IMG/VR virus record: IMGVR_UViG_3300042870_001966
Source of the DNA: a virus
Taxonomy: Duplodnaviria > Heunggongvirae > Uroviricota > Caudoviricetes
DNA length: 64,000 bases
Reading direction: 5' to 3' (one strand)
Part shown: positions 3,451 through 63,882 of the stretch, piece by piece
How positions within the stretch are numbered: the first letter of the stretch is position 1
Layout of the letters: every line of letters starts with the position of its first letter
Program-made: the position numbers and the translations under genes
Notes under the pieces: generated by a model
The model's input: the letters and a program-made list of their open reading frames with translations, nothing else
Told to the model about the DNA's origin: nothing
Databases searched by the model: none

Positions 3451-4002
3451 ATGTTAAAATCATTTAGCCAATTCGTAACTGGATTATTTGAAAAGAAAGG
3501 AGACGCTCATAGTTATGGATGTGCAATGGTCTATTTCAATTTTCCAACAATGCCTGAACTGCATTCAAAAATAGATGAAGCAGATATCTACACAGAAGAG
3601 GGCGATCGTTCATACGGTCTTGAGGATGAACCTCATACAACTCTTTTATATGGACTTCATTCGGCAGATATTAATGACGCTAAGGTATTAGAGATATGTA
3701 AATCTAAACCAATCGGTCAACTGACTCTACATAATGCATCTCTATTTGAGAATGCTAAATACGATGTACTTAAGTTTGATGTAGAAAATCCAGTGTTGGC
3801 TGAGATTAATGCAGAACTTAGTAAGTTACCTCACACTACTGATTTCCCAGACTACCATCCACATGCAACAATCGGGTACCTAAAGCCTGGAACCGGCAAG
3901 AAATACGTTGACTTATTTAATGGTAATCGGCATGAAGTCGCTGCTCATAAAATAGTTTATTCAAAACCTGACGACAGTCGAATCGAAGAAGAATGGAATT
4001 AA
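3451..4002 (+). CDS. 2H phosphoesterase (LigT-like) with CTS-like N-terminus
   Basis: Two HxTx motifs (HTTL, HATI). N-terminus MLKSFSQFVTGLFE. Confidence 0.65.
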   Translation: MLKSFSQFVTGLFEKKGDAHSYGCAMVYFNFPTMPELHSKIDEADIYTEEGDRSYGLEDEPHTTLLYGLHSADINDAKVLEICKSKPIGQLTLHNASLFENAKYDVLKFDVENPVLAEINAELSKLPHTTDFPDYHPHATIGYLKPGTGKKYVDLFNGNRHEVAAHKIVYSKPDDSRIEEEWN

Positions 4003-18187: not shown

Positions 18188-18739
18188 ATGAAACTTAAGA
18201 GATTTTCACAATTTGTAAAAGAGAGCTTGATAACAGAATCTTCGTCAGTTATTGAAGTTGAAGAAAATATATTCTTAATAGACGAAATAATCTACATAAT
18301 TTGGCTTGTTACACTAGACGTATCTTTCGATTATGAGCCTGACGATAGCAGTGTCGGATTCGTTGGCGGCTATTCAGTTGATGATGTTGACTTTGATGGA
18401 GTAGACGGAGTGTATAAAGTAACTGATCCTTCAGTAATTTCGCAGGTTAAAGCCATGCTAGATTCCCCTGAAGCTGAAGAGTTAAAAAGCATGGGATTTG
18501 AAGGAGCTGATGAATATGCAGCAATTGGCGATTTAATATACGATGCAGAGCAAGAAGAAATTACAGGAGAAGAGCTCAAGGACTTCATTAATAAATTCAA
18601 AGCTCTTTACGATTCAAATACTCTAGTCGATTTAACTGGTACTTTCAAAAAAAGAACTGACTCTGCTCTCGATAGAGCGGTTGAGGATTTTGAACCTGAT
18701 GAGCCTGACTACGATGATTACGACGATGATCGTTATTAA
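18188..18739 (+). CDS. acidic protein with CTS-like N-terminus (MKLKRFSQFVKE)
   Basis: Shares N-terminal motif with 18766, 40926, 43623 and 63082. ATAAATAA lies upstream. Confidence 0.55.
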   Translation: MKLKRFSQFVKESLITESSSVIEVEENIFLIDEIIYIIWLVTLDVSFDYEPDDSSVGFVGGYSVDDVDFDGVDGVYKVTDPSVISQVKAMLDSPEAEELKSMGFEGADEYAAIGDLIYDAEQEEITGEELKDFINKFKALYDSNTLVDLTGTFKKRTDSALDRAVEDFEPDEPDYDDYDDDRY

Positions 18740-18765: not shown

Positions 18766-19329
18766 ATGAAACTTAAAAGATTCACACAATTTGTTAACGA
18801 AGCAAAGATTAACGAAGCTCAAATCAAAGATAAAACTATCGTTGCTAAGCTTGATAGAATTCACGAAATCAAAACTCGATTAAAAGAATTGACAGCTGAA
18901 ACAAAAGCTATCAATACTGAGCTTGGTGCATTTGATGCAACAATGAAGCCGATCTTTGATGCAATGAAAGTCCTAAATGATAAGCTTGCAACAACTGAAA
19001 AATACGTTATCAAGATTTCAAGATACGGCGGATCTTCTGAAAACCCATCTTATGCTAAAGCTGTAGAGCAGGCACTAGGGTTAGTCGATGCTGCTGCTCA
19101 AGCAATTATCAACGAATGTGTTAGACAAAACACAGCAATATCAAACGTAAAACACTCATACGATATTGAAAAACTAGATGAATCTAAATTAACTGATAAA
19201 GCTAAAGCGATCGTTGCTAGGTTGTCTGGTAAAATCACAGCAATCGTTGCCAAGTTAAAGTCTTTCTTTGAGTCTAAATTCTCTAAGATCGATCAAGCAA
19301 ACGAAAAACTTGCAGCAATGATAAAGTAA
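18766..19329 (+). CDS. coiled-coil protein with CTS-like N-terminus (MKLKRFTQFVNE)
   Basis: Paralogous N-terminus. Confidence 0.55.
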   Translation: MKLKRFTQFVNEAKINEAQIKDKTIVAKLDRIHEIKTRLKELTAETKAINTELGAFDATMKPIFDAMKVLNDKLATTEKYVIKISRYGGSSENPSYAKAVEQALGLVDAAAQAIINECVRQNTAISNVKHSYDIEKLDESKLTDKAKAIVARLSGKITAIVAKLKSFFESKFSKIDQANEKLAAMIK

Positions 19330-24483: not shown

Positions 24484-25149
24484 ATGATGAATGAATTTCA
24501 AAAGTACGCAATGAGCGAGCACGGGGTGTCCTCATTGAAATTAGATTATTACGGTAAACAAGTTGAGTCATCGATGACTCCTTATATTTTAGAGGAACGT
24601 GAAATGCGAGTTACTCAAATGGATATTTTCTCCAGATTAATGAGGGATCGTATTCTATGGGTCGCTGGACCAGTAAACGACTACATGTCAACTATTGTAC
24701 AGGCTCAGTTAATGTTCCTAGATTCTGTTGATAATTCAGATATCACAATGCACGTTGACTCTCCAGGAGGATCGGTTAAGTCTGGTCTATCAATGGTCGA
24801 CGTAATGGACTATATCAAAGCCGATATCCGAACCGTAAATACTGGCATGGCCGCATCGATGGGATCAGTGCTATTGGGCGCAGGAACAAAAGGCAAACGT
24901 AGTTCCCTAAGACACTCAACCACAATGCTGCACCAATCGTCTGGCGGTTTTAGCGGCAATATTCAGGATGCTGAAGTTGACTGGGCTGAATGGCAAAAAG
25001 TCAATCATGAACTTTTCGTTCTACTTGGTAAATACTGTGGTAAGAAAGCTGACCAAGTAAAGAAGGATGCAACCAGAGATTTCTGGTTAAATGCTGAAGA
25101 GGCAGTTAAGTACGGAATTATAGATCAAGTAATCACAAAGAAACCTTAA
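24484..25149 (+). CDS. clpP: ClpP-family serine protease
   Basis: SPGGSV...GMAASMG...HQSSGG catalytic triad context. Confidence 0.8.
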   Translation: MMNEFQKYAMSEHGVSSLKLDYYGKQVESSMTPYILEEREMRVTQMDIFSRLMRDRILWVAGPVNDYMSTIVQAQLMFLDSVDNSDITMHVDSPGGSVKSGLSMVDVMDYIKADIRTVNTGMAASMGSVLLGAGTKGKRSSLRHSTTMLHQSSGGFSGNIQDAEVDWAEWQKVNHELFVLLGKYCGKKADQVKKDATRDFWLNAEEAVKYGIIDQVITKKP

Positions 25150-34117: not shown

Positions 34118-35320
34118 ATGGAAAATCAAAACAGCGTATGTTACATTGGAAAAGTAACAGAAATCAAGGCAATCGAAGGAGCTGACAATATTGAGTTAGC
34201 GATCATCGGTGGATGGAATTGTATTACTAAAAAAGGACTACACAAGGCGGACGAATTTGTTATCATTGCAACAACTGATGCAGTTATTCCGGAAGAGTTA
34301 TCCGAAAAATTGGGAGTAACCGGTTACCTGCGTAAGGGCAATCGAGTTAGAACAGTTAAGTTGAGAGGAGTTTACAGTGAGTGTCTAATCATTCCGCTTA
34401 ATGTGCTTGAAGGTTCAGAAGAAATGAAGATCGGAGTTAGTAAACAGCCTTGGGGCGATCAATTACAGTTGGGCCCTTATGACGATGCACTCGTTATTGA
34501 AGAAGGAGTTGACGTTAGTGAGATGCTTGGAATTTTCAAGTACGAACCGCCAGTTAGACAGGTCCAACTTGCTTCAGGTAAAAAGGTTCGTTATCAAGAC
34601 AATCCAAACTTTCATGTCTACTACAAGTTTCCTAACTTGAAAAATGTTAGTGGAATGTTTACTGAAGAGGATATTGTGCAAATCACGCGTAAGATCCACG
34701 GTACGAATGCACGATACGGTATAGTTAAGAAGAATCGCTTGTCCTTCATGGATAGGATTAAAAAATTCTTTGGATTCGCCGGAGAGCTCTTTGAGTACGA
34801 GTACGTTTATGGATCTCATAATGTCGAGAAGGGTTCTGATTCTCAAGGGTTCTATTCAACTGATGTCTGGAGAACAATTGCCGAGAAGTACGATATCAAG
34901 AACAGGTTGCTTACCTTAGCAAAAACTAAAAATAGGATTGGTGAACTTGGAGCTGGTATTGTAATTTACGGAGAAATTTACGGTGCAGGTATTCAAAAGA
35001 ATTACGAGTACGGTCTGACTGATATTGAATTCGTTGGATTCGATGCCACAGTAAACGGCAAATACGAGTCCACTATTTACACTGAATTCCTTTTCAAAGA
35101 AGCGCTAGAGTTACCTCACGTTGGAGTCCTATACACAGGACCGTGGTCACAAGAGACACAAGACCAGTTCGTCTTTGGTAATATGATCAAAGGAACTAAG
35201 GTGCCGCATGAAGGCATTGTTATTAAGCACATAAGCGGTGAGCGTAATCGAGTAGCAAAGGTAATTAATCCAGACTATTTGATTTACGGAGAAAAGCACG
35301 ATATTGGAGACTCACATTAA
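34118..35320 (+). CDS. ATP-dependent RNA ligase (Rnl2-like motifs) fused to N-terminal tRNA-binding OB (Myf/Trbp111-like) domain
   Basis: N-terminal GKV.EI..IEGADNIELA..GG tRNA_bind pattern. Ligase motifs KIHGTN (I), EGIVIK (IV), AKVIN (V). Confidence 0.65.
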   Translation: MENQNSVCYIGKVTEIKAIEGADNIELAIIGGWNCITKKGLHKADEFVIIATTDAVIPEELSEKLGVTGYLRKGNRVRTVKLRGVYSECLIIPLNVLEGSEEMKIGVSKQPWGDQLQLGPYDDALVIEEGVDVSEMLGIFKYEPPVRQVQLASGKKVRYQDNPNFHVYYKFPNLKNVSGMFTEEDIVQITRKIHGTNARYGIVKKNRLSFMDRIKKFFGFAGELFEYEYVYGSHNVEKGSDSQGFYSTDVWRTIAEKYDIKNRLLTLAKTKNRIGELGAGIVIYGEIYGAGIQKNYEYGLTDIEFVGFDATVNGKYESTIYTEFLFKEALELPHVGVLYTGPWSQETQDQFVFGNMIKGTKVPHEGIVIKHISGERNRVAKVINPDYLIYGEKHDIGDSH

Positions 35321-35334
35321 TAAAACAAATACAA

Positions 35335-35808
35335 ATGGAAGAAGAAAAATTACCGATCAGAATCTATTTAGATGACGTTCGAACACCAATTGAACAGGAC
35401 TGGATAGTTGTTAGATCATACCAGGAGTTCAAGGACAAGGTGATGGAAATTGGATTAAAGAACATTCACATGATCTCATTGGATCACGACTTGGGTGACT
35501 CAGCTATGTCAGAGTACTTCACGAATGTAAGTCCTAACTATAAGCTAGACTACACGAACATTACTGAAAAAACTGGAATGGATTGCACTAAGTGGTTGGT
35601 GAATCAGTTCTACGACGAGAATCCAAAGAGAATTGAGATGAGTCGTTTCGATAAGCGTAATGTGCCGATTCGGTTTCCAGCAGTCTACGTACACTCAGCG
35701 AATCCAATTGGATCAGCGAACATGATGGGTTACATTAATAACTTCTTCATGAATGAGGGAGAACCTCAAAACTGCGTGAGAGTTCAGATACCTCACACGG
35801 TAATGTAA
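35335..35808 (+). CDS. hypothetical protein
   Basis: ORF in the RNA-repair block. Confidence 0.45.
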   Translation: MEEEKLPIRIYLDDVRTPIEQDWIVVRSYQEFKDKVMEIGLKNIHMISLDHDLGDSAMSEYFTNVSPNYKLDYTNITEKTGMDCTKWLVNQFYDENPKRIEMSRFDKRNVPIRFPAVYVHSANPIGSANMMGYINNFFMNEGEPQNCVRVQIPHTVM

Positions 35809-40341: not shown

Positions 40342-40926
40342 ATGAAACACCTTAAACTATACGAAGAATTTGATCTTGACAGATTCCTAGACAATCCAGA
40401 AAAGGAATTAGCTGATGACAATTCACCAGAGATCAATGTAGGAAATTACGTTGACTCATACCGAGGTAAAGGCCAAGTGCTTGATATCGATAGCGATTTT
40501 GCAAAAGTTGAATTACATAACTCAAAAGGCAATATTGTTAAAGTTCCAGTTTTTGCTCTAACTAAAATATCTCACGAAGACCTAACTTCAGCCAAGGTCG
40601 GAGATTCTCAAGCTGAACTTGCGGAGCTAGTGAGTCAGGCCAGACAGTACAATGATTACCTTGACTCAACTGAAGATTATGATAACGAAGATGAAGAGGA
40701 TGGAGTTTACTCAGCAAGTCAGGTAAATTTCGATACCCTACTAGCATATATTCAAGATACAACGATCGATGTTATCTCTATTAAAAATAACGATAGTGCA
40801 TACGATACCTATTCAGAATATCACGAACTGATTAATTTAGTCGGCTCAATCGCTGGAGCAATTCAGAGAGCAAGACCGGACTTAATGGATGAAGTTGATG
40901 CAGCACTAGACAATTTCCCAGGATAA
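40342..40926 (+). CDS. acidic hypothetical protein
   Basis: TATAAATA lies immediately upstream. Weak CTS-like N-terminus LKLYEEFD. Confidence 0.5.
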   Translation: MKHLKLYEEFDLDRFLDNPEKELADDNSPEINVGNYVDSYRGKGQVLDIDSDFAKVELHNSKGNIVKVPVFALTKISHEDLTSAKVGDSQAELAELVSQARQYNDYLDSTEDYDNEDEEDGVYSASQVNFDTLLAYIQDTTIDVISIKNNDSAYDTYSEYHELINLVGSIAGAIQRARPDLMDEVDAALDNFPG

Positions 40927-42257
40927 TGAGACTTAAACGATTTACACAATTCGTTAATGAAAATACTGATGATGCTGAAGAATTAGCAGCATTAGGTTTT
41001 AATTCAAAGATTGACACGGATGAAATTCAAGGATTAATGGCCGAATACAACCCAGAGGAGAAGACCGACACGACATTAGGTTTCGATTTGGGATTTGATA
41101 TGACAGCTGATGATTTAGGACTTGATCCAGAAAGAGCAGAGGCTGCTGAATTAGATAGCGTGTTCCTTGTTCAGTACTATGTTGATTTCGACTTTGAGAC
41201 AATGAAATCTAAAGTACAAGTGGCAGTCTTAAATTCTGGGATTGATTTTGACGGTGCAGGTAATGCGTATGAAGTTGATTTTAAACTGGATTCAGAAAAT
41301 CACGATTCTCAAGGAATCGCTGATGAGTTAACTCAGATTTTGCAGCGAATTGAATACGAAGGCATGTTTGTAGACATGGCAGTCGATATAGTAAATGACA
41401 TAATCGATAGACGTCTTGGAGAAGTATCAGAAAAGAAGAAACTTAAATGGCATGATTCTGATGAGCCTAACACAAAAGGAAAATTCATAATTGAGAACTT
41501 ATCTGATGAAGAAGCTGCAGAACTAAGAGCAATGGGTTTTGGTGGAGTTGACACTGATGCAATCGCAGAACTAGTCAATGGAGCAACTGCAGAAGATCAA
41601 ATCGTTATTGTTTCAGGCCAGTTCAATCAATCTATAGATGATTACGGAATAGATTCATCCGAATATCCGGATATAGAAAGAGACGTATGGACTGATTTTG
41701 AAGTCAGAATAAACTTTATCGATGAAACTGTTAAGTCGTCAGTTAGTGTCGCACAAAAAGATATCGGACTTTACGAAGATGCTGAACTTGAAGACTATGA
41801 ATGGTCTGACCTATTCCAAAATGGAGATCCAGTTTCAATGAAGTCTAATGAGATAGCTGAAGATATTGAACTCTTTATGAGTGCCGTAACTGGTTTCGAA
41901 GACTCGCTTGGAATGTACGACAAAATTCAAGATCTTTTAAATAAGGCAATTGAGGAACAGTATCACAGATGGGATGACGAAGAAGATGATGAAGCTGATG
42001 AAGATGAAATTTCAGAAAAGAAAAAACTTAAATGGCACGATTCTGATGCACCTGATGCAAATGGAAAATTCAGAGACCTTGGAGTTAATAAATTAGCGGA
42101 TTGGTTAATCAGAACAAGAGGTGGTAACATGCAAAAGATTACTGGATCGCTAAATCAACAAATTAATTTTAACAAGCGAAAAAATCCAAGTTATGCCAAG
42201 AAAATGGAGTCGACTCGGGAAGCAGTTAAAAGAAAATTAGCAAAAAGAAAAGAATAA
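40926..42257 (+). CDS. acidic protein with CTS-like N-terminus (MRLKRFTQFVNE) and internal duplication
   Basis: EKKKLKWHDSD(E/A)P..GKF occurs twice. Confidence 0.55.
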   Translation: MRLKRFTQFVNENTDDAEELAALGFNSKIDTDEIQGLMAEYNPEEKTDTTLGFDLGFDMTADDLGLDPERAEAAELDSVFLVQYYVDFDFETMKSKVQVAVLNSGIDFDGAGNAYEVDFKLDSENHDSQGIADELTQILQRIEYEGMFVDMAVDIVNDIIDRRLGEVSEKKKLKWHDSDEPNTKGKFIIENLSDEEAAELRAMGFGGVDTDAIAELVNGATAEDQIVIVSGQFNQSIDDYGIDSSEYPDIERDVWTDFEVRINFIDETVKSSVSVAQKDIGLYEDAELEDYEWSDLFQNGDPVSMKSNEIAEDIELFMSAVTGFEDSLGMYDKIQDLLNKAIEEQYHRWDDEEDDEADEDEISEKKKLKWHDSDAPDANGKFRDLGVNKLADWLIRTRGGNMQKITGSLNQQINFNKRKNPSYAKKMESTREAVKRKLAKRKE

Positions 42258-43622: not shown

Positions 43623-44519
43623 TTGAAGTTACTTAAATTTACACAATTCATAACTGAAGCCCGAATCTCTTCTCACGGAGAGGGTCGTATAGATCAACGA
43701 ATCTATAATCTAGAGTCAATTAACTTACCTAAGCCAGCGAGACAATTTATTCGAGAAGCTGGATTTGAAATAAACGAAGTCTACTCTCAACTCATTGATG
43801 CTATTAAATCTGAATTTAAAAAGAGCCAAGACCATATTGAGAGAACTCAATTTCCATCAGGCCATAAAGCCCTACCAGTAGTTGCACCATTCTTAAAGAT
43901 AGAGGGTACCTCTTATCCAGTAACAATGTCTGTAAAATCATTTAGTGGAGAGATTGAAAAAATTCACATCGGCGAGCGAGTTTTCGCCTATATTTCAGAT
44001 GATGTTCTTACAACAATCAAGGTGCTCCCTCACAGAATGTCTCATAAAGATATTCAAATGGATTTGGAAAATCATCTTTCTAGAAAGGGTAAAACTGGAT
44101 CAGTTACCGTATATGAATTACCAGAAGAGACAGTAAATAGCGTATTTGAACTTACAGAAGACGGTCAAGTAATCCCAGAAAGAAGAGCTGCCTATACTCC
44201 AGCAGTTATTAGCGGAGAACAACAATACTCAGTCGCAGCTGGTAGAAAAATTAAGGTGTTTATTCCATTCCTAAAAGAGTTCACTGAATGCACAATTGAT
44301 GGTGTCCTAAACCGTGATTCTTTTAGAGAAGACCGATTCTTGAAATTGGGAATTATTTTACCGGATGGCAGAAAGATTGCCAAAACTCTAAATCCTGGAG
44401 ATACAGTCGAGCTCCCAATTGGAGAAAATGGGGACTGGGTAAAGACAAAAATCGCAGATTCACTTTACGTATACGATAAGAGAACTGCTGAACCTATTTC
44501 ACTTAAAGCAATCGCTTAA
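43623..44519 (+). CDS. protein with CTS-like N-terminus (TTG start; MKLLKFTQFITE)
   Basis: TATAAATA lies 24 nt upstream. Confidence 0.5.
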   Translation: MKLLKFTQFITEARISSHGEGRIDQRIYNLESINLPKPARQFIREAGFEINEVYSQLIDAIKSEFKKSQDHIERTQFPSGHKALPVVAPFLKIEGTSYPVTMSVKSFSGEIEKIHIGERVFAYISDDVLTTIKVLPHRMSHKDIQMDLENHLSRKGKTGSVTVYELPEETVNSVFELTEDGQVIPERRAAYTPAVISGEQQYSVAAGRKIKVFIPFLKEFTECTIDGVLNRDSFREDRFLKLGIILPDGRKIAKTLNPGDTVELPIGENGDWVKTKIADSLYVYDKRTAEPISLKAIA

Positions 44520-56524: not shown

Positions 56525-58207
56525 TTAAAGTTGTCCTGGTGTTCCTACTTCAGATGAGGTTTCTCCACCAGCCGGTTCTTCTCCAGCTGGGGCAGCAGGC
56601 GCTCCACCAGCAGCAGCGGCTCCACCAGCAGCGGCGCCACCGTCAGCTTTAGCATCATTGTCTTGAGTTGCTTGGTAGCTTCGGTTTTTAGCAATATCCT
56701 CGTCACTTAATTTCAAGTATTCTTTAATTAAGTATTCGGTTGAGAAGTAAGGTTTAGCATCATCATTCACTACCGCTTTCATTGCATTAAGGGTAGCAAG
56801 ACGTTTATTAAGTAATTCCTGAGTTTTAATCTCCTCGAATACATTATCATTGTGCCATAGCATACCTACTGCATTTGAGAAACGGTGATCCGTTTTTAAA
56901 TCCTTAATATCTAAGCACATTTGCAAATACAGAGGTTTGGTGATTAACTCTTTGAAGGCTGATCTTAATCTCTTGATGAATTTATTGTAGCGAATCTCCT
57001 CTCTTGAAATACCTTCCGCATTCATAGTGTATGCACCTTGACCTTCTGACCAACGTGAATATGGAAGTTTAGAGTCAAGCTTTAGTTTATCTTGAAAGTA
57101 TTTTAATAATTCAGAGCCTGATAAATTTGGGCCTGGATATTCAAGTGCTTCAATATCGATTTTCTCGCCTCTATCGTTTACTGGAAGAACGTAGTTTTTA
57201 TAGAAAAGAATATTAGGTTTTCCATCAACCATTAATTCTCCAGAGCTACCATCGAATGTTATATCTTCTTTTAAGGTATTGGTAAACTCACGAACATCTT
57301 CTTTGGCTTTTTGCATTGATTTTGTTCCAACTGGTACGCTTGTTTTTAAACGAATTGGCGCATTCATTGTATGCCAAATAATCTTAGAGTGTTCAATTAA
57401 ACGAAGTAGGTTAAATGAACGAAGTAGTCTCTCTACGAAACTAACTCGCTTGGTTCTAAATTCATTTGAATATGAAATGTAGATAATTTGTGAATCAGTT
57501 AAGGTACGATTCATCTTATTAATGGGATCACGTTGAGACCATTGCAGATAAATTTTTCCGCCTGAATCTTTTTTTACTTCAGGATAAAGAGTAGATGGAT
57601 CTAATTCCTTAAATCCAATAATATCTTTTGGATTTGAGATATTGTCGTAAATGATTTCAAATGCCAAGTGACCTTCAATTAACCATTGGTAAAAGTACTG
57701 CCATGCTGAAATTCCTCTGTCGAAACTCCATGCACTATAGATCTTTGCAAAATTTTCTTGGTACTTCTCAATTACTTTTTCTTGATAGTTAAGACGTTGG
57801 TCTTTATTCTTTCCTCGGTAATTAATTTCTCCAACTAGGTCATTTGGATAACAGAATCGATTATCTTCATCGTATACAATTGCATCATCTGCAATAGTTT
57901 CAATAACGAATTCAATTTCGCCATTTGATGCAAGATCCCTAAGTCTCTCTCTTTTCTGAACATAGTCTAATTGAAAGAACGCGATTGACTTGTTCTTTAA
58001 TGAGGATGTCGTATCGGATAGAGCAAGAGTAGCCTTCATCAGATCATCTCCCATTGCGTTGTTGAAACCCGTTAACTGACCTTCAATGTAACCTATCGCT
58101 TGTGAGTTCTTCACAAGAAGGTCATCGTATTTCATACCAAATCGACTTAGTGCGGTTAAGCTTGATCTAAGCCCTTTCATTGGGTTACTGTCTAAAAATC
58201 CTGCCAT
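56525..58207 (-). CDS. portal vertex protein (T4 gp20-like)
   Basis: DDAIVYDED resembles T4 gp20 SDAIVYEDD. Size about 560 aa. Confidence 0.65.
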   Translation of the reverse strand: MAGFLDSNPMKGLRSSLTALSRFGMKYDDLLVKNSQAIGYIEGQLTGFNNAMGDDLMKATLALSDTTSSLKNKSIAFFQLDYVQKRERLRDLASNGEIEFVIETIADDAIVYDEDNRFCYPNDLVGEINYRGKNKDQRLNYQEKVIEKYQENFAKIYSAWSFDRGISAWQYFYQWLIEGHLAFEIIYDNISNPKDIIGFKELDPSTLYPEVKKDSGGKIYLQWSQRDPINKMNRTLTDSQIIYISYSNEFRTKRVSFVERLLRSFNLLRLIEHSKIIWHTMNAPIRLKTSVPVGTKSMQKAKEDVREFTNTLKEDITFDGSSGELMVDGKPNILFYKNYVLPVNDRGEKIDIEALEYPGPNLSGSELLKYFQDKLKLDSKLPYSRWSEGQGAYTMNAEGISREEIRYNKFIKRLRSAFKELITKPLYLQMCLDIKDLKTDHRFSNAVGMLWHNDNVFEEIKTQELLNKRLATLNAMKAVVNDDAKPYFSTEYLIKEYLKLSDEDIAKNRSYQATQDNDAKADGGAAAGGAAAAGGAPAAPAGEEPAGGETSSEVGTPGQL

Positions 58208-58890: not shown

Positions 58891-59397
58891 TTATATTGAT
58901 TTGAACAGAAAGTTTTCGGTTATTATCCCAAATTTTAAACCTCTTACTGAAGCGAACTCTTTAGCTGCTTCAAATTTTGCCTGATTTACAATGTATTGCT
59001 TGGCTGCATATACATAACTTGCAGTTTGCTTGTCAGTCATTCTTGCTGGGGCAGTAGGTGGTTTGGTATACTTGTCAGGCTTTACCTCAATTAACCAAGA
59101 CTGCTCCTTTCCTGAGCTATCTTTGGTTACGATATAAAAATCAACATAATATGTGTGTCCGCGTTTATCAAGAGGAGAATAGTAAGGAATTCCTACTGGT
59201 TCGCTTGAGTATTTAATAACAGTCGGGCTGTGATCACACCATTTTAGGAATTTGAATTCCCAGCTTGATCTGAATATTATTTGCGAAGTATCGCCAACGT
59301 ACTTCTCAGGGAACGCTGGTTTAAAGTATCCCTGACGGATTGTTCCAGCTCGCGGTTTTAAGAAAGTCTTGATGCTCTTCTGCTCTTTCGGTTTCAT
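58891..59397 (-). CDS. PD-(D/E)xK nuclease-like protein
   Basis: YVDFYI...LIEVKP pattern. Confidence 0.4.
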   Translation of the reverse strand: MKPKEQKSIKTFLKPRAGTIRQGYFKPAFPEKYVGDTSQIIFRSSWEFKFLKWCDHSPTVIKYSSEPVGIPYYSPLDKRGHTYYVDFYIVTKDSSGKEQSWLIEVKPDKYTKPPTAPARMTDKQTASYVYAAKQYIVNQAKFEAAKEFASVRGLKFGIITENFLFKSI

Positions 59398-59405
59398 ATA
59401 GTTAT

Positions 59406-60530
59406 TTATAGGTACGCCATGTCAAACACGGAATCGCTAAAATAACTATTGATCCATTCATTAAAGCTTTCAATTGAAGTATTTGAATTTCTGTCATGCA
59501 TGTAACAGAAAAGGTCATTAATATCTTTGACTTTTTGTAGAGCCATCATATCTTCAGTAGAACTAAATTTTCTCTTTAGGTCACCGATTGCTTTATTCCA
59601 CAAAAACACAGAGTATCCTTGCTGGATAAAATTCATCATTTGAGTCTTGCCTGCCTTATCTCGGTCAAATATAACTTGAGTAGCACCCTTTGACCCTAGA
59701 TTAGAGAAAATACTTCTGGCTTTAGATGCACCAGAGGTTGCAATCGCGTTAGTTATGAACATTGAATCGAATTGACCCTCAGTCATTCTGATTGGCTTGC
59801 TGAAGTCAACGTTCAAGATATTGAAGTAGTTATTAAGAAAGTTCGCATCTTCCACCAGATCCTTCGAGAGTCCTATCTGAGAGAAGATATGAATAATATC
59901 GGAATATGACTTGATTATGTACTTACGTTCGGAATTTGGATCGAGACTTCTAATTGAGAATCCTAGTATTTTACCGGATCTTCTATCGAAATTAAAAATA
60001 TAGACTTTATTATCGGATGAATCAGTATAGAGACAATCTCCGAAATCTTCAATTAAGTTGATCGCTCGGCCCTTTATGTACTGATACGCTCTAGATTCTT
60101 CTGAAACCATATCAAGTCTCTTTAACGAGAACCTATTGATTACTTCAGTTATTGTAACAAGACTTGATGTATCGGATGTTAAGAATCTAATTAATTGATT
60201 CTCTGTCTTTTTGGGTTTTGCAACTGGTGAGTATTCTGTATCTAGGATAAAGCTTGGAAGCATGATTCCATGTTCCTTACTCATTCTGGCAACAAATTCT
60301 CCCATGGTCATATATGCCATACAACCATCATTAAAACATTTATAAGCCCCAGTATCTAAATAGAGGTTACCACGCTTCTTTGAAACCTTCTTGTCCGAGT
60401 CTCCGCAAATTGGACACGCGAAATTTAGCTTACGGCCAGTCTCTCCATCAATTTTTTGTTTCTCAGGAACATCGTGGAATCTCTTACGTAATAAGGTTTC
60501 AATGAATGCGGTTATTTCCTCAATTCTCAT
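59406..60530 (-). CDS. DNA primase (zinc-ribbon plus TOPRIM; gp61/DnaG-like)
   Basis: CPICGDS...C..C zinc ribbon. FDRDKAG DxD motif. Confidence 0.6.
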   Translation of the reverse strand: MRIEEITAFIETLLRKRFHDVPEKQKIDGETGRKLNFACPICGDSDKKVSKKRGNLYLDTGAYKCFNDGCMAYMTMGEFVARMSKEHGIMLPSFILDTEYSPVAKPKKTENQLIRFLTSDTSSLVTITEVINRFSLKRLDMVSEESRAYQYIKGRAINLIEDFGDCLYTDSSDNKVYIFNFDRRSGKILGFSIRSLDPNSERKYIIKSYSDIIHIFSQIGLSKDLVEDANFLNNYFNILNVDFSKPIRMTEGQFDSMFITNAIATSGASKARSIFSNLGSKGATQVIFDRDKAGKTQMMNFIQQGYSVFLWNKAIGDLKRKFSSTEDMMALQKVKDINDLFCYMHDRNSNTSIESFNEWINSYFSDSVFDMAYL

Positions 60531-62819: not shown

Positions 62820-63092
62820 ATGGAACAATTGGATTCATTCATTGAGTATCTGTATACGGTAGAAGAGAACTTAACTCAACTAACGACAGATCAAGTAAAA
62901 AAGCTACAGTCAATTCAAACTAAAGTAAGTGAATTAGTTAATAAAATTCAAACGCCTCAACCGGCCCAGCCTCAAAGCCAACCCCAAGTTCAAGTACGAT
63001 CAATGGAATTACAGTTAGCTGAAAATAAGGTTCAAAGCTTCTCAAACTACATGGAGTTAAAAGAAACAACTAAAGCAAAGAATGCTAGGTAA
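62820..63092 (+). CDS. hypothetical protein
   Basis: ORF only. Confidence 0.4.
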   Translation: MEQLDSFIEYLYTVEENLTQLTTDQVKKLQSIQTKVSELVNKIQTPQPAQPQSQPQVQVRSMELQLAENKVQSFSNYMELKETTKAKNAR

Positions 63093-63882
63093 AAGACTCC
63101 ATACATTTTCACAATTTATTCTAGAAAGAGGTGATTGGAATTACGCAAATCACTATGCTCAATACCTAAATAAGTTCACAGAAGATTCTGTTATATTGGA
63201 TCTACTTAAAGACTTTGATAAACAGGTTAATGAATTGGAGGATACTTACTGGTATAATAGAGAAAGTCGAAATTTTAGAAACGACCATTATGCACTAGAC
63301 ATGAAAATCCACTCATACCCAGATGTACAGAAATGGGCAGCACTAAAAGGATATTCAGCTGAGGAAATTGAAGAAGATGAGTCGTCATTAGAATCAGCAA
63401 TGTGGGATCAGTGGGGTAGATTCATGGAAGAGACTTACGAAGTTAATTCAGAAGACTATATGAATACGTATGACTGGTTAACTAAAGTTGGAGTAGGGGG
63501 CCAAAGCGGAGGCTGGCTATTACTAGCAATGGAGGACAGTCATTCTGACTTGGAAAGAATTCTAGAAGATAAATTCGATATGTACTTAGAAGAAGTAGCA
63601 GACGCAAATGCTGGATCAATTCAGTTACTAAAACAAATCATTGAAAATCCAGAAGAGACTGCTGAGCTCATTGAGTTTGGAATAATTGATGAAGAGACTG
63701 CTGCTAAAGCAGAGGAGATTATTGAAGCTCGAGATGAAGTTGAAAACTGGTTACGTGAAAAACTGAATGAATTGTATCAAATAGAAAGGGATCTTGATGC
63801 AATTAAAGATGATATTAATAGATTTAGACAGACTGCATTAGCTGATTTTTACGTATGGACCTCTGATTCAGAAGACTATTAA
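63082..63882 (+). CDS. acidic protein with CTS-like N-terminus (..RLHTFSQFILE)
   Basis: Paralogous N-terminal motif. Confidence 0.5.
   Translation: MLGKRLHTFSQFILERGDWNYANHYAQYLNKFTEDSVILDLLKDFDKQVNELEDTYWYNRESRNFRNDHYALDMKIHSYPDVQKWAALKGYSAEEIEEDESSLESAMWDQWGRFMEETYEVNSEDYMNTYDWLTKVGVGGQSGGWLLLAMEDSHSDLERILEDKFDMYLEEVADANAGSIQLLKQIIENPEETAELIEFGIIDEETAAKAEEIIEARDEVENWLREKLNELYQIERDLDAIKDDINRFRQTALADFYVWTSDSEDY

Follow-up and report, generated by a model that had tools for sequence, protein, structure and literature searches.

Acb1 (gp57B of T4 and its counterpart in Erwinia phage FBB1; PF23474, phrog_755) is a small phage enzyme, a 2H phosphodiesterase carrying a pair of HxT motifs. Its residues Y12, W74 and F107 stack on nucleobases, E141 contacts adenine and W147 lies in a C-terminal lid (PMC9117128). 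In PDE-9 of Burkholderia phage BCSR5 (9Q2G/9Q2Y), an enzyme of the Acb1 group, the functional segment is N-terminal rather than C-terminal and the lid is formed by residues 1-15 (Doherty et al. 2025 preprint). That a fold does not reveal the substrate has been shown experimentally for other viral 2H enzymes: the groups differ widely in substrate, and some were inactive on all 18 nucleotide messengers tested. 2H domains are also a component of phage polyvalent proteins. Iyer, Burroughs, Anand, de Souza and Aravind (2017; PMC5512222) predicted that such domains are carried into the host along with the DNA, where they would destroy nucleotide signals or serve as RNases. The idea of an injected anti-signalling 2H enzyme is therefore not new. 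Known anti-signalling nucleases (for example, Acb1) are generally regarded as products of an infection already under way. An enzyme that travelled in the capsid would act ahead of any phage transcription.

The T4 internal proteins IPI, IPII and IPIII, together with Alt, carry a CTS (MKTYQEFIAE or MKTFKEF..ITE) that ends in [LI]xE and is cut by gp21. The specificity of this prohead protease is I/LxE (PMC12991175).

We have analysed a window of 64,000 nucleotides (IMG/VR record IMGVR_UViG_3300042870_001966) from a giant phage of Bacteroidota, a megaphage. Comparison of the whole window with phage records by megablast gave no match. The features that concern us here are a 2H gene, a group of genes with similar N-terminal leaders and genes for a T4-type head. 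Their coordinates are given in Table 1.

Table 1. Features of the 64,000-nucleotide window discussed in the text
Feature	Coordinates	Strand	Remarks
ORF of 183 aa: leader, linker and 2H phosphoesterase core	3451..4002 (including stop)	+	ATG start
N-terminal leader, residues 1-14, MLKSFSQFVTGLFE	3451..3492	+	T4-CTS-like aromatic motif FSQFV
Candidate [LI]xE prohead-protease site, L12-F13-E14	within leader 3451..3492	+
Lys-rich linker, residues 15-21 (KKGDAHS)	3493..3513	+	Length variable across the family
2H phosphoesterase core, residues 22-183	3514..3999	+	From beta1 'YGCAMVYF'
Catalytic motif 1, H62-T63-T64 (HTTL)	3634..3642	+	Aligned with Acb1 H44/T46
Catalytic motif 2, H138-A139-T140 (HATI)	3862..3870	+	Within the 'DFPDYHPHATI' block common to Acb1
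Unrelated ORFan, strict leader MKLKRFSQFVKE	18188..18739	+
Unrelated ORFan, strict leader MKLKRFTQFVNE	18766..19329	+
ClpP	24484..25149
RNA ligase-cREC cluster	34118..35808
ORF preceding 40926..42257, looser leader MKHLKLYEEF	40342..40926
Unrelated ORFan, strict leader MRLKRFTQFVNE	40926..42257	+
Unrelated ORFan, strict leader MKLLKFTQFITE	43623..44519	+	TTG start
T4-type portal protein (gp20 family)	56525..58207	-	Pfam Portal_T4, 223.8 bits; phrog_213
T4 gp4-like head-closure protein	58891..59397	-	phrog_218, 2e-50; preceded by TATAAATAA at 59402-59410
Unrelated ORFan, strict leader ..HTFSQFILE	63082..63882	+

The product of the 2H gene is almost certainly a 2H phosphoesterase. Both HxT/Sx motifs claimed in the first-pass annotation are present: H62, T64, H138 and T140 are invariant across an alignment of 57 sequences. 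The two histidines are 76 residues apart, compared with 69 in T4 Acb1. The protein also has the characteristic bilobed alpha+beta 2H fold, in a core of approximately 160 residues, and motifs and fold together uphold its assignment to the superfamily. A comparison of folds with Acb1 and LigT, proposed at the same time, recovers the 2H fold but is not discriminating: for this protein it gives no means of telling Acb1 apart from LigT, Usb1 or CPDase.

Sequence comparison bears out Acb1 as the nearest characterised family. The sole PHROG match is phrog_755 (2.3e-10), against which T4 57B and FBB1 Acb1 score 227 and 199 bits. Searches of the PDB with sequence and profile return Acb1 entries only (9q2g, 7t26, 9q2y), PDE-9 being the best profile match (E = 0.0074). 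Alignment to an Acb1 alignment using hhalign gives a probability of 92.6% and E = 4.6e-7, with about 42 columns covered. The score against Pfam Acb1 is 25.0 bits, below the gathering cut-off of 27, while 55 of the 57 family members match this model at E < 0.01 (best E = 1.8e-8). In a merged alignment, the only source of this correspondence, Acb1 Y12, W74 and F107 fall opposite aromatic residues of the window protein (Y22, F99 and F132). F99 is invariant, the Y22 position is occupied by Y (49 members), F (7) or H (1), and that of F132 by F (33) or Y (24). W182 is aligned with Acb1 W147, with Trp at this position in 12 of the 57. The position of Acb1 E141 is not conserved and contains T, S, E or D.

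The two proteins have the block 'D[FY]PDYxPHxT' in common but are only about 18% identical. Unlike Acb1, the family of the window protein has a conserved insert, 'IYTEEGDRSYGLE', before the first HxT and another, 'YLKxGTGKKY', after the second. It carries a leader of 14-20 aa ending in [LIVM]xE, whereas T4-type Acb1 has a tail of 8-9 aa, with such a site in 12 of 65 tails. On these sequence criteria the window protein belongs to a phage family of very large size, remotely related to Acb1 and distinct from it.

The N-terminal segment is a leader, apart from the fold. Several observations point to a signal rather than to a part of the fold. In the AF2 model pLDDT is low for residues 1-20 and falls below 50 for residues 14-19, with residues 5-13 forming a low-confidence helix. 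A [LIVM]xE site is present in 114 of 116 homologue leaders (37.5 in shuffles). Some homologues have no leader (Maribacter phage Molly and several cluster representatives), and similar leaders are found on unrelated ORFs, as described below. Leader and linker together vary from 8 to 51 aa, and in some homologues a 30-aa Cys module is inserted between leader and 2H core. In relatives with several domains the leader keeps its place at the very start of the polypeptide, even where the 2H domain is found at residues 396-566, 74-246 or 84-264. Among the homologues, P0091 starts MKTYNDFITE and P0195 includes ..FIEFIAE, to be compared with MKTYQEFIAE of T4 (the T4 CTS sequences were taken from the T4 record). 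On balance we favour a role for the leader as a signal for head targeting or processing.

The first-pass annotation attributed this N-terminus to a CTS-like family. The family is real and far exceeds chance expectation; the 2H ORF, however, is only one of its looser members. We used a strict pattern, [FY]x[EQD]F[ILV]xE, generalised a priori from the CTS of T4 IPII/IPIII (YQEFIAE). Both P0091 and P0195 conform to this 7-mer. The 2H leader does not, because the Glu that follows FSQFV is shifted by three residues (..TGLFE14). The strict pattern occurs six times in the six-frame translation of the window. It is found within the first 15 residues of five ORFs (0.013 expected; Table 1), which are mutually unrelated beyond the leader. 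A looser 5-mer is present at 8 of 104 ORF N-termini (0.58 expected). A test for genome-specific co-variation of the leaders was positive for the window alone (0.44 versus 0.21-0.29) and flat for three other genomes. A late-promoter-like motif, KATAAATAA, has 10 sites in the window (3.7 expected) and lies upstream of the endolysin gene, the gp4-like gene and four of the leader ORFs. Upstream of the 2H gene there is a similar motif with one mismatch; the exact version is absent.

The window includes two T4-type head genes, the portal and the gp4-like gene. The portal, being T4-type, points to a T4-like head assembly. A prohead protease was sought without success in the window and in 10 kb of its left flank, which contains SmpB, lysozyme and a topoisomerase subunit and is devoid of head genes. 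Searches of all window ORFs with T4 gp21, gp22, gp67 and gp68 using phmmer gave no match, and exact-protein searches made to extend the window beyond its right end, towards protease and capsid genes, retrieved nothing on record. PHROGs labels one window protein 'head maturation protease'. We rejected this candidate since Pfam identifies it as a genuine ClpP (196 bits) and it is paired with a Clp ATPase, the ClpA/B-like enzyme also encoded in the window.

Related megaphages provide a fuller picture. In LR756500 and LR756504 the gene order is portal, S77 protease/scaffold and gp23-type capsid protein, and LR756504 also carries a leader-bearing 2H gene. The megaphage prohead protease was revealed by tblastn with the PTm1 protease as query but not with T4 gp21. 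In L012 the 2H gene is located inside a tandem array of genes starting MKH[LI]K.[YF].LFES, several of which encode ART-PolyVal ADP-ribosyltransferases (Alt-like), and that of LR756502 is set in an uninterrupted run of five leader genes. In the window it is situated between a topoisomerase II subunit gene and a thioesterase gene, outside any leader-gene array.

The leaders of this clade resemble the T4 CTS. In both cases they are carried by otherwise unrelated, fast-evolving and often clustered proteins, including Alt in T4 and Alt-like ARTs in a relative of the window phage, and the clade also has T4-type portal, protease and capsid genes. There are also differences: the Bacteroidota megaphages and their hosts are far removed from T4 and its host, and the T4 cargo is an ORFan inhibitor whereas that of the window phage is a conserved enzyme family whose packaging is putative.

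We infer that the leader-tagged, Acb1-related 2H protein is packaged, cleaved, injected and active on immune nucleotide signals, a reading which, taken as a whole, we advance tentatively. The leader would attach the protein to the scaffolding core of a T4-type prohead, where an S77-type prohead protease would cut after Glu14 (L-F-E|K). The mature enzyme would stay behind in the head alongside the DNA and then be ejected into the next host. There, ahead of any phage gene expression, it would hydrolyse phosphodiester-linked nucleotide signals of immune systems such as CBASS, type III CRISPR or their relatives. That the substrate is an immune nucleotide signal is, in our estimate, evenly balanced. 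Several of the observations above weigh against this reading: the 2H leader falls outside the strict 7-mer, the window and its left flank yielded no prohead protease, co-variation of the leaders was confined to the window, the score against Pfam Acb1 is below the cut-off, the E141 position is not conserved, and some viral 2H groups were inactive on the messengers tested. Polyvalent 2H proteins would be delivered differently: they are multidomain proteins and would rely on fusion to MuF or portal modules, whereas the window protein consists of one domain behind a putative cleavable CTS-type leader.

A role in healing or processing RNA ends is somewhat unlikely but has evidence of its own. The enzyme, packaged or not, would open the 2',3'-cyclic phosphate ends of tRNAs after the action of host anticodon nucleases, with the phage RNA ligase, kinase, phosphatase and CCA-adding enzyme as partners, or would trim RNA in the manner of Usb1. 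The window includes 26 tRNA genes together with a CCA-adding enzyme, an RNA ligase, a cREC domain, HAD_SAK_2 and an AAA_33 kinase, and such heavy investment in tRNA supply and repair speaks against the packaged reading. In addition, an RNA ligase-RlaP-cREC cluster is located 6-9 kb from the 2H gene in L008 and L010, this 2H domain is fused to a PolyA_pol/CCA-type nucleotidyltransferase in P0305, and Iyer et al. 2021 gave jumbo-phage 2H enzymes partly this role. LigT_PEase is matched by 6 of the 57 family members, and there is a weak match to NCBIfam ThpR/LigT (TIGR02258), although at 18.6 bits it is far below the equivalog cut-off of 65.7. Other observations count against this role. The family is phage-specific, unlike ThpR/LigT, and has no operonic link to RNA repair genes. 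The 2H gene adjoins a ligase gene in none of the loci examined (L008 and L010 among them), and its neighbours in L012 and LR756502 are leader-tagged effector-like genes (ARTs) rather than repair genes. Phage 2H proteins, solo or polyvalent, show no association with RNA ligases (Iyer et al. 2017; PMC5512222). Healing of tRNA ends is further weakened because the ligase cluster of the window, 30 kb away, has its own predicted cyclic-phosphate processor, the cREC domain. The leader, moreover, is absent from all recognised repair enzymes in the window.

The affinity with Acb1 would be explained equally well by an unpackaged, cytoplasmic degrader of signals, the leader being some other tag (for example, for timing or degradation by ClpP/Clp-ATPase, for assembly or for localisation). 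T4 Acb1 is not a known virion component, and an Acb1 homologue of phage G, from a different family, is missing from the phage G virion proteome. The 2H gene has replication-type genes around it and lacks an exact copy of the late-promoter-like motif, which also counts against packaging. Besides the ClpP and ClpA/B-like ATPase of the window, ClpP is present in L008. We know of no Clp degron similar to the leader. Against such a tag, leaders in this group resemble the T4 CTS down to EFIAE and MKTYxxFIxE, a gp21-type [LI]xE end occurs in 98% of homologues, and the leader goes together with genes for a T4-type portal, protease and capsid and is shared with Alt-like ARTs. We regard an unpackaged degrader as unlikely. 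It is very improbable, and we have largely rejected the view, that the N-terminal segment is instead a catalytic lid over the active site, as in PDE-9 or the penguinpox cGAMP PDE, its likeness to other ORFs being incidental. PDE-9 is the best PDB profile match and its lid is N-terminal; low-confidence modelling, as seen for this leader, is typical of lids; and the leader lies approximately 20 residues ahead of beta1, close to the PDE-9 geometry. The PDE-9 lid (MKITARILYDRLKDS), however, has neither the leader motif nor any [LIVM]xE, and the window segment is common to unrelated proteins, namely at least five ORFs of the window and the gene arrays of other genomes. It can also lie far from the domain it would cover, 70-390 residues upstream in P0213, P0199 and P0206. 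This position argues against a lid, as do the variable leader-to-core distance, the inserted Cys module and the leaderless homologues. In the uncleaved protein the segment may have a dual role, as signal and lid.

Under the packaged reading, an enzyme made in advance would blunt nucleotide immune signalling from the first second of infection, and the injected arsenal would include Alt-like ADP-ribosyltransferases as well as an Acb1-related phosphodiesterase. It is quite possible, though rather less likely than not, that T4-type CTS loading, far from being peculiar to T-even phages, is an ancient and general cargo system of T4-type heads, used on a large scale in Bacteroidota megaphages with dozens of tagged injected genes per genome. 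If the leader is a capsid-targeting signal, the injected proteome of uncultivated megaphages, which have no virions available, could be predicted from metagenomic sequence alone.

The 2H domain of this family is also found in larger proteins. Fusions to ART, GNAT-like, topoisomerase IB and nucleotidyltransferase domains occur in proteins of 600-1475 aa (multidomain members include P0193, P0290, P0305 and P0277), and in P0193 the partner is an ADP-ribosyltransferase toxin domain. A protein identical to that of the window is encoded on contigs of 0.2-1 Mb. The family as a whole comprises 5,471 cluster representatives at 50% identity, so that a functional assignment would re-label many genes. At present most of its members bear the label 'hypothetical' or '2'-5' RNA ligase'.

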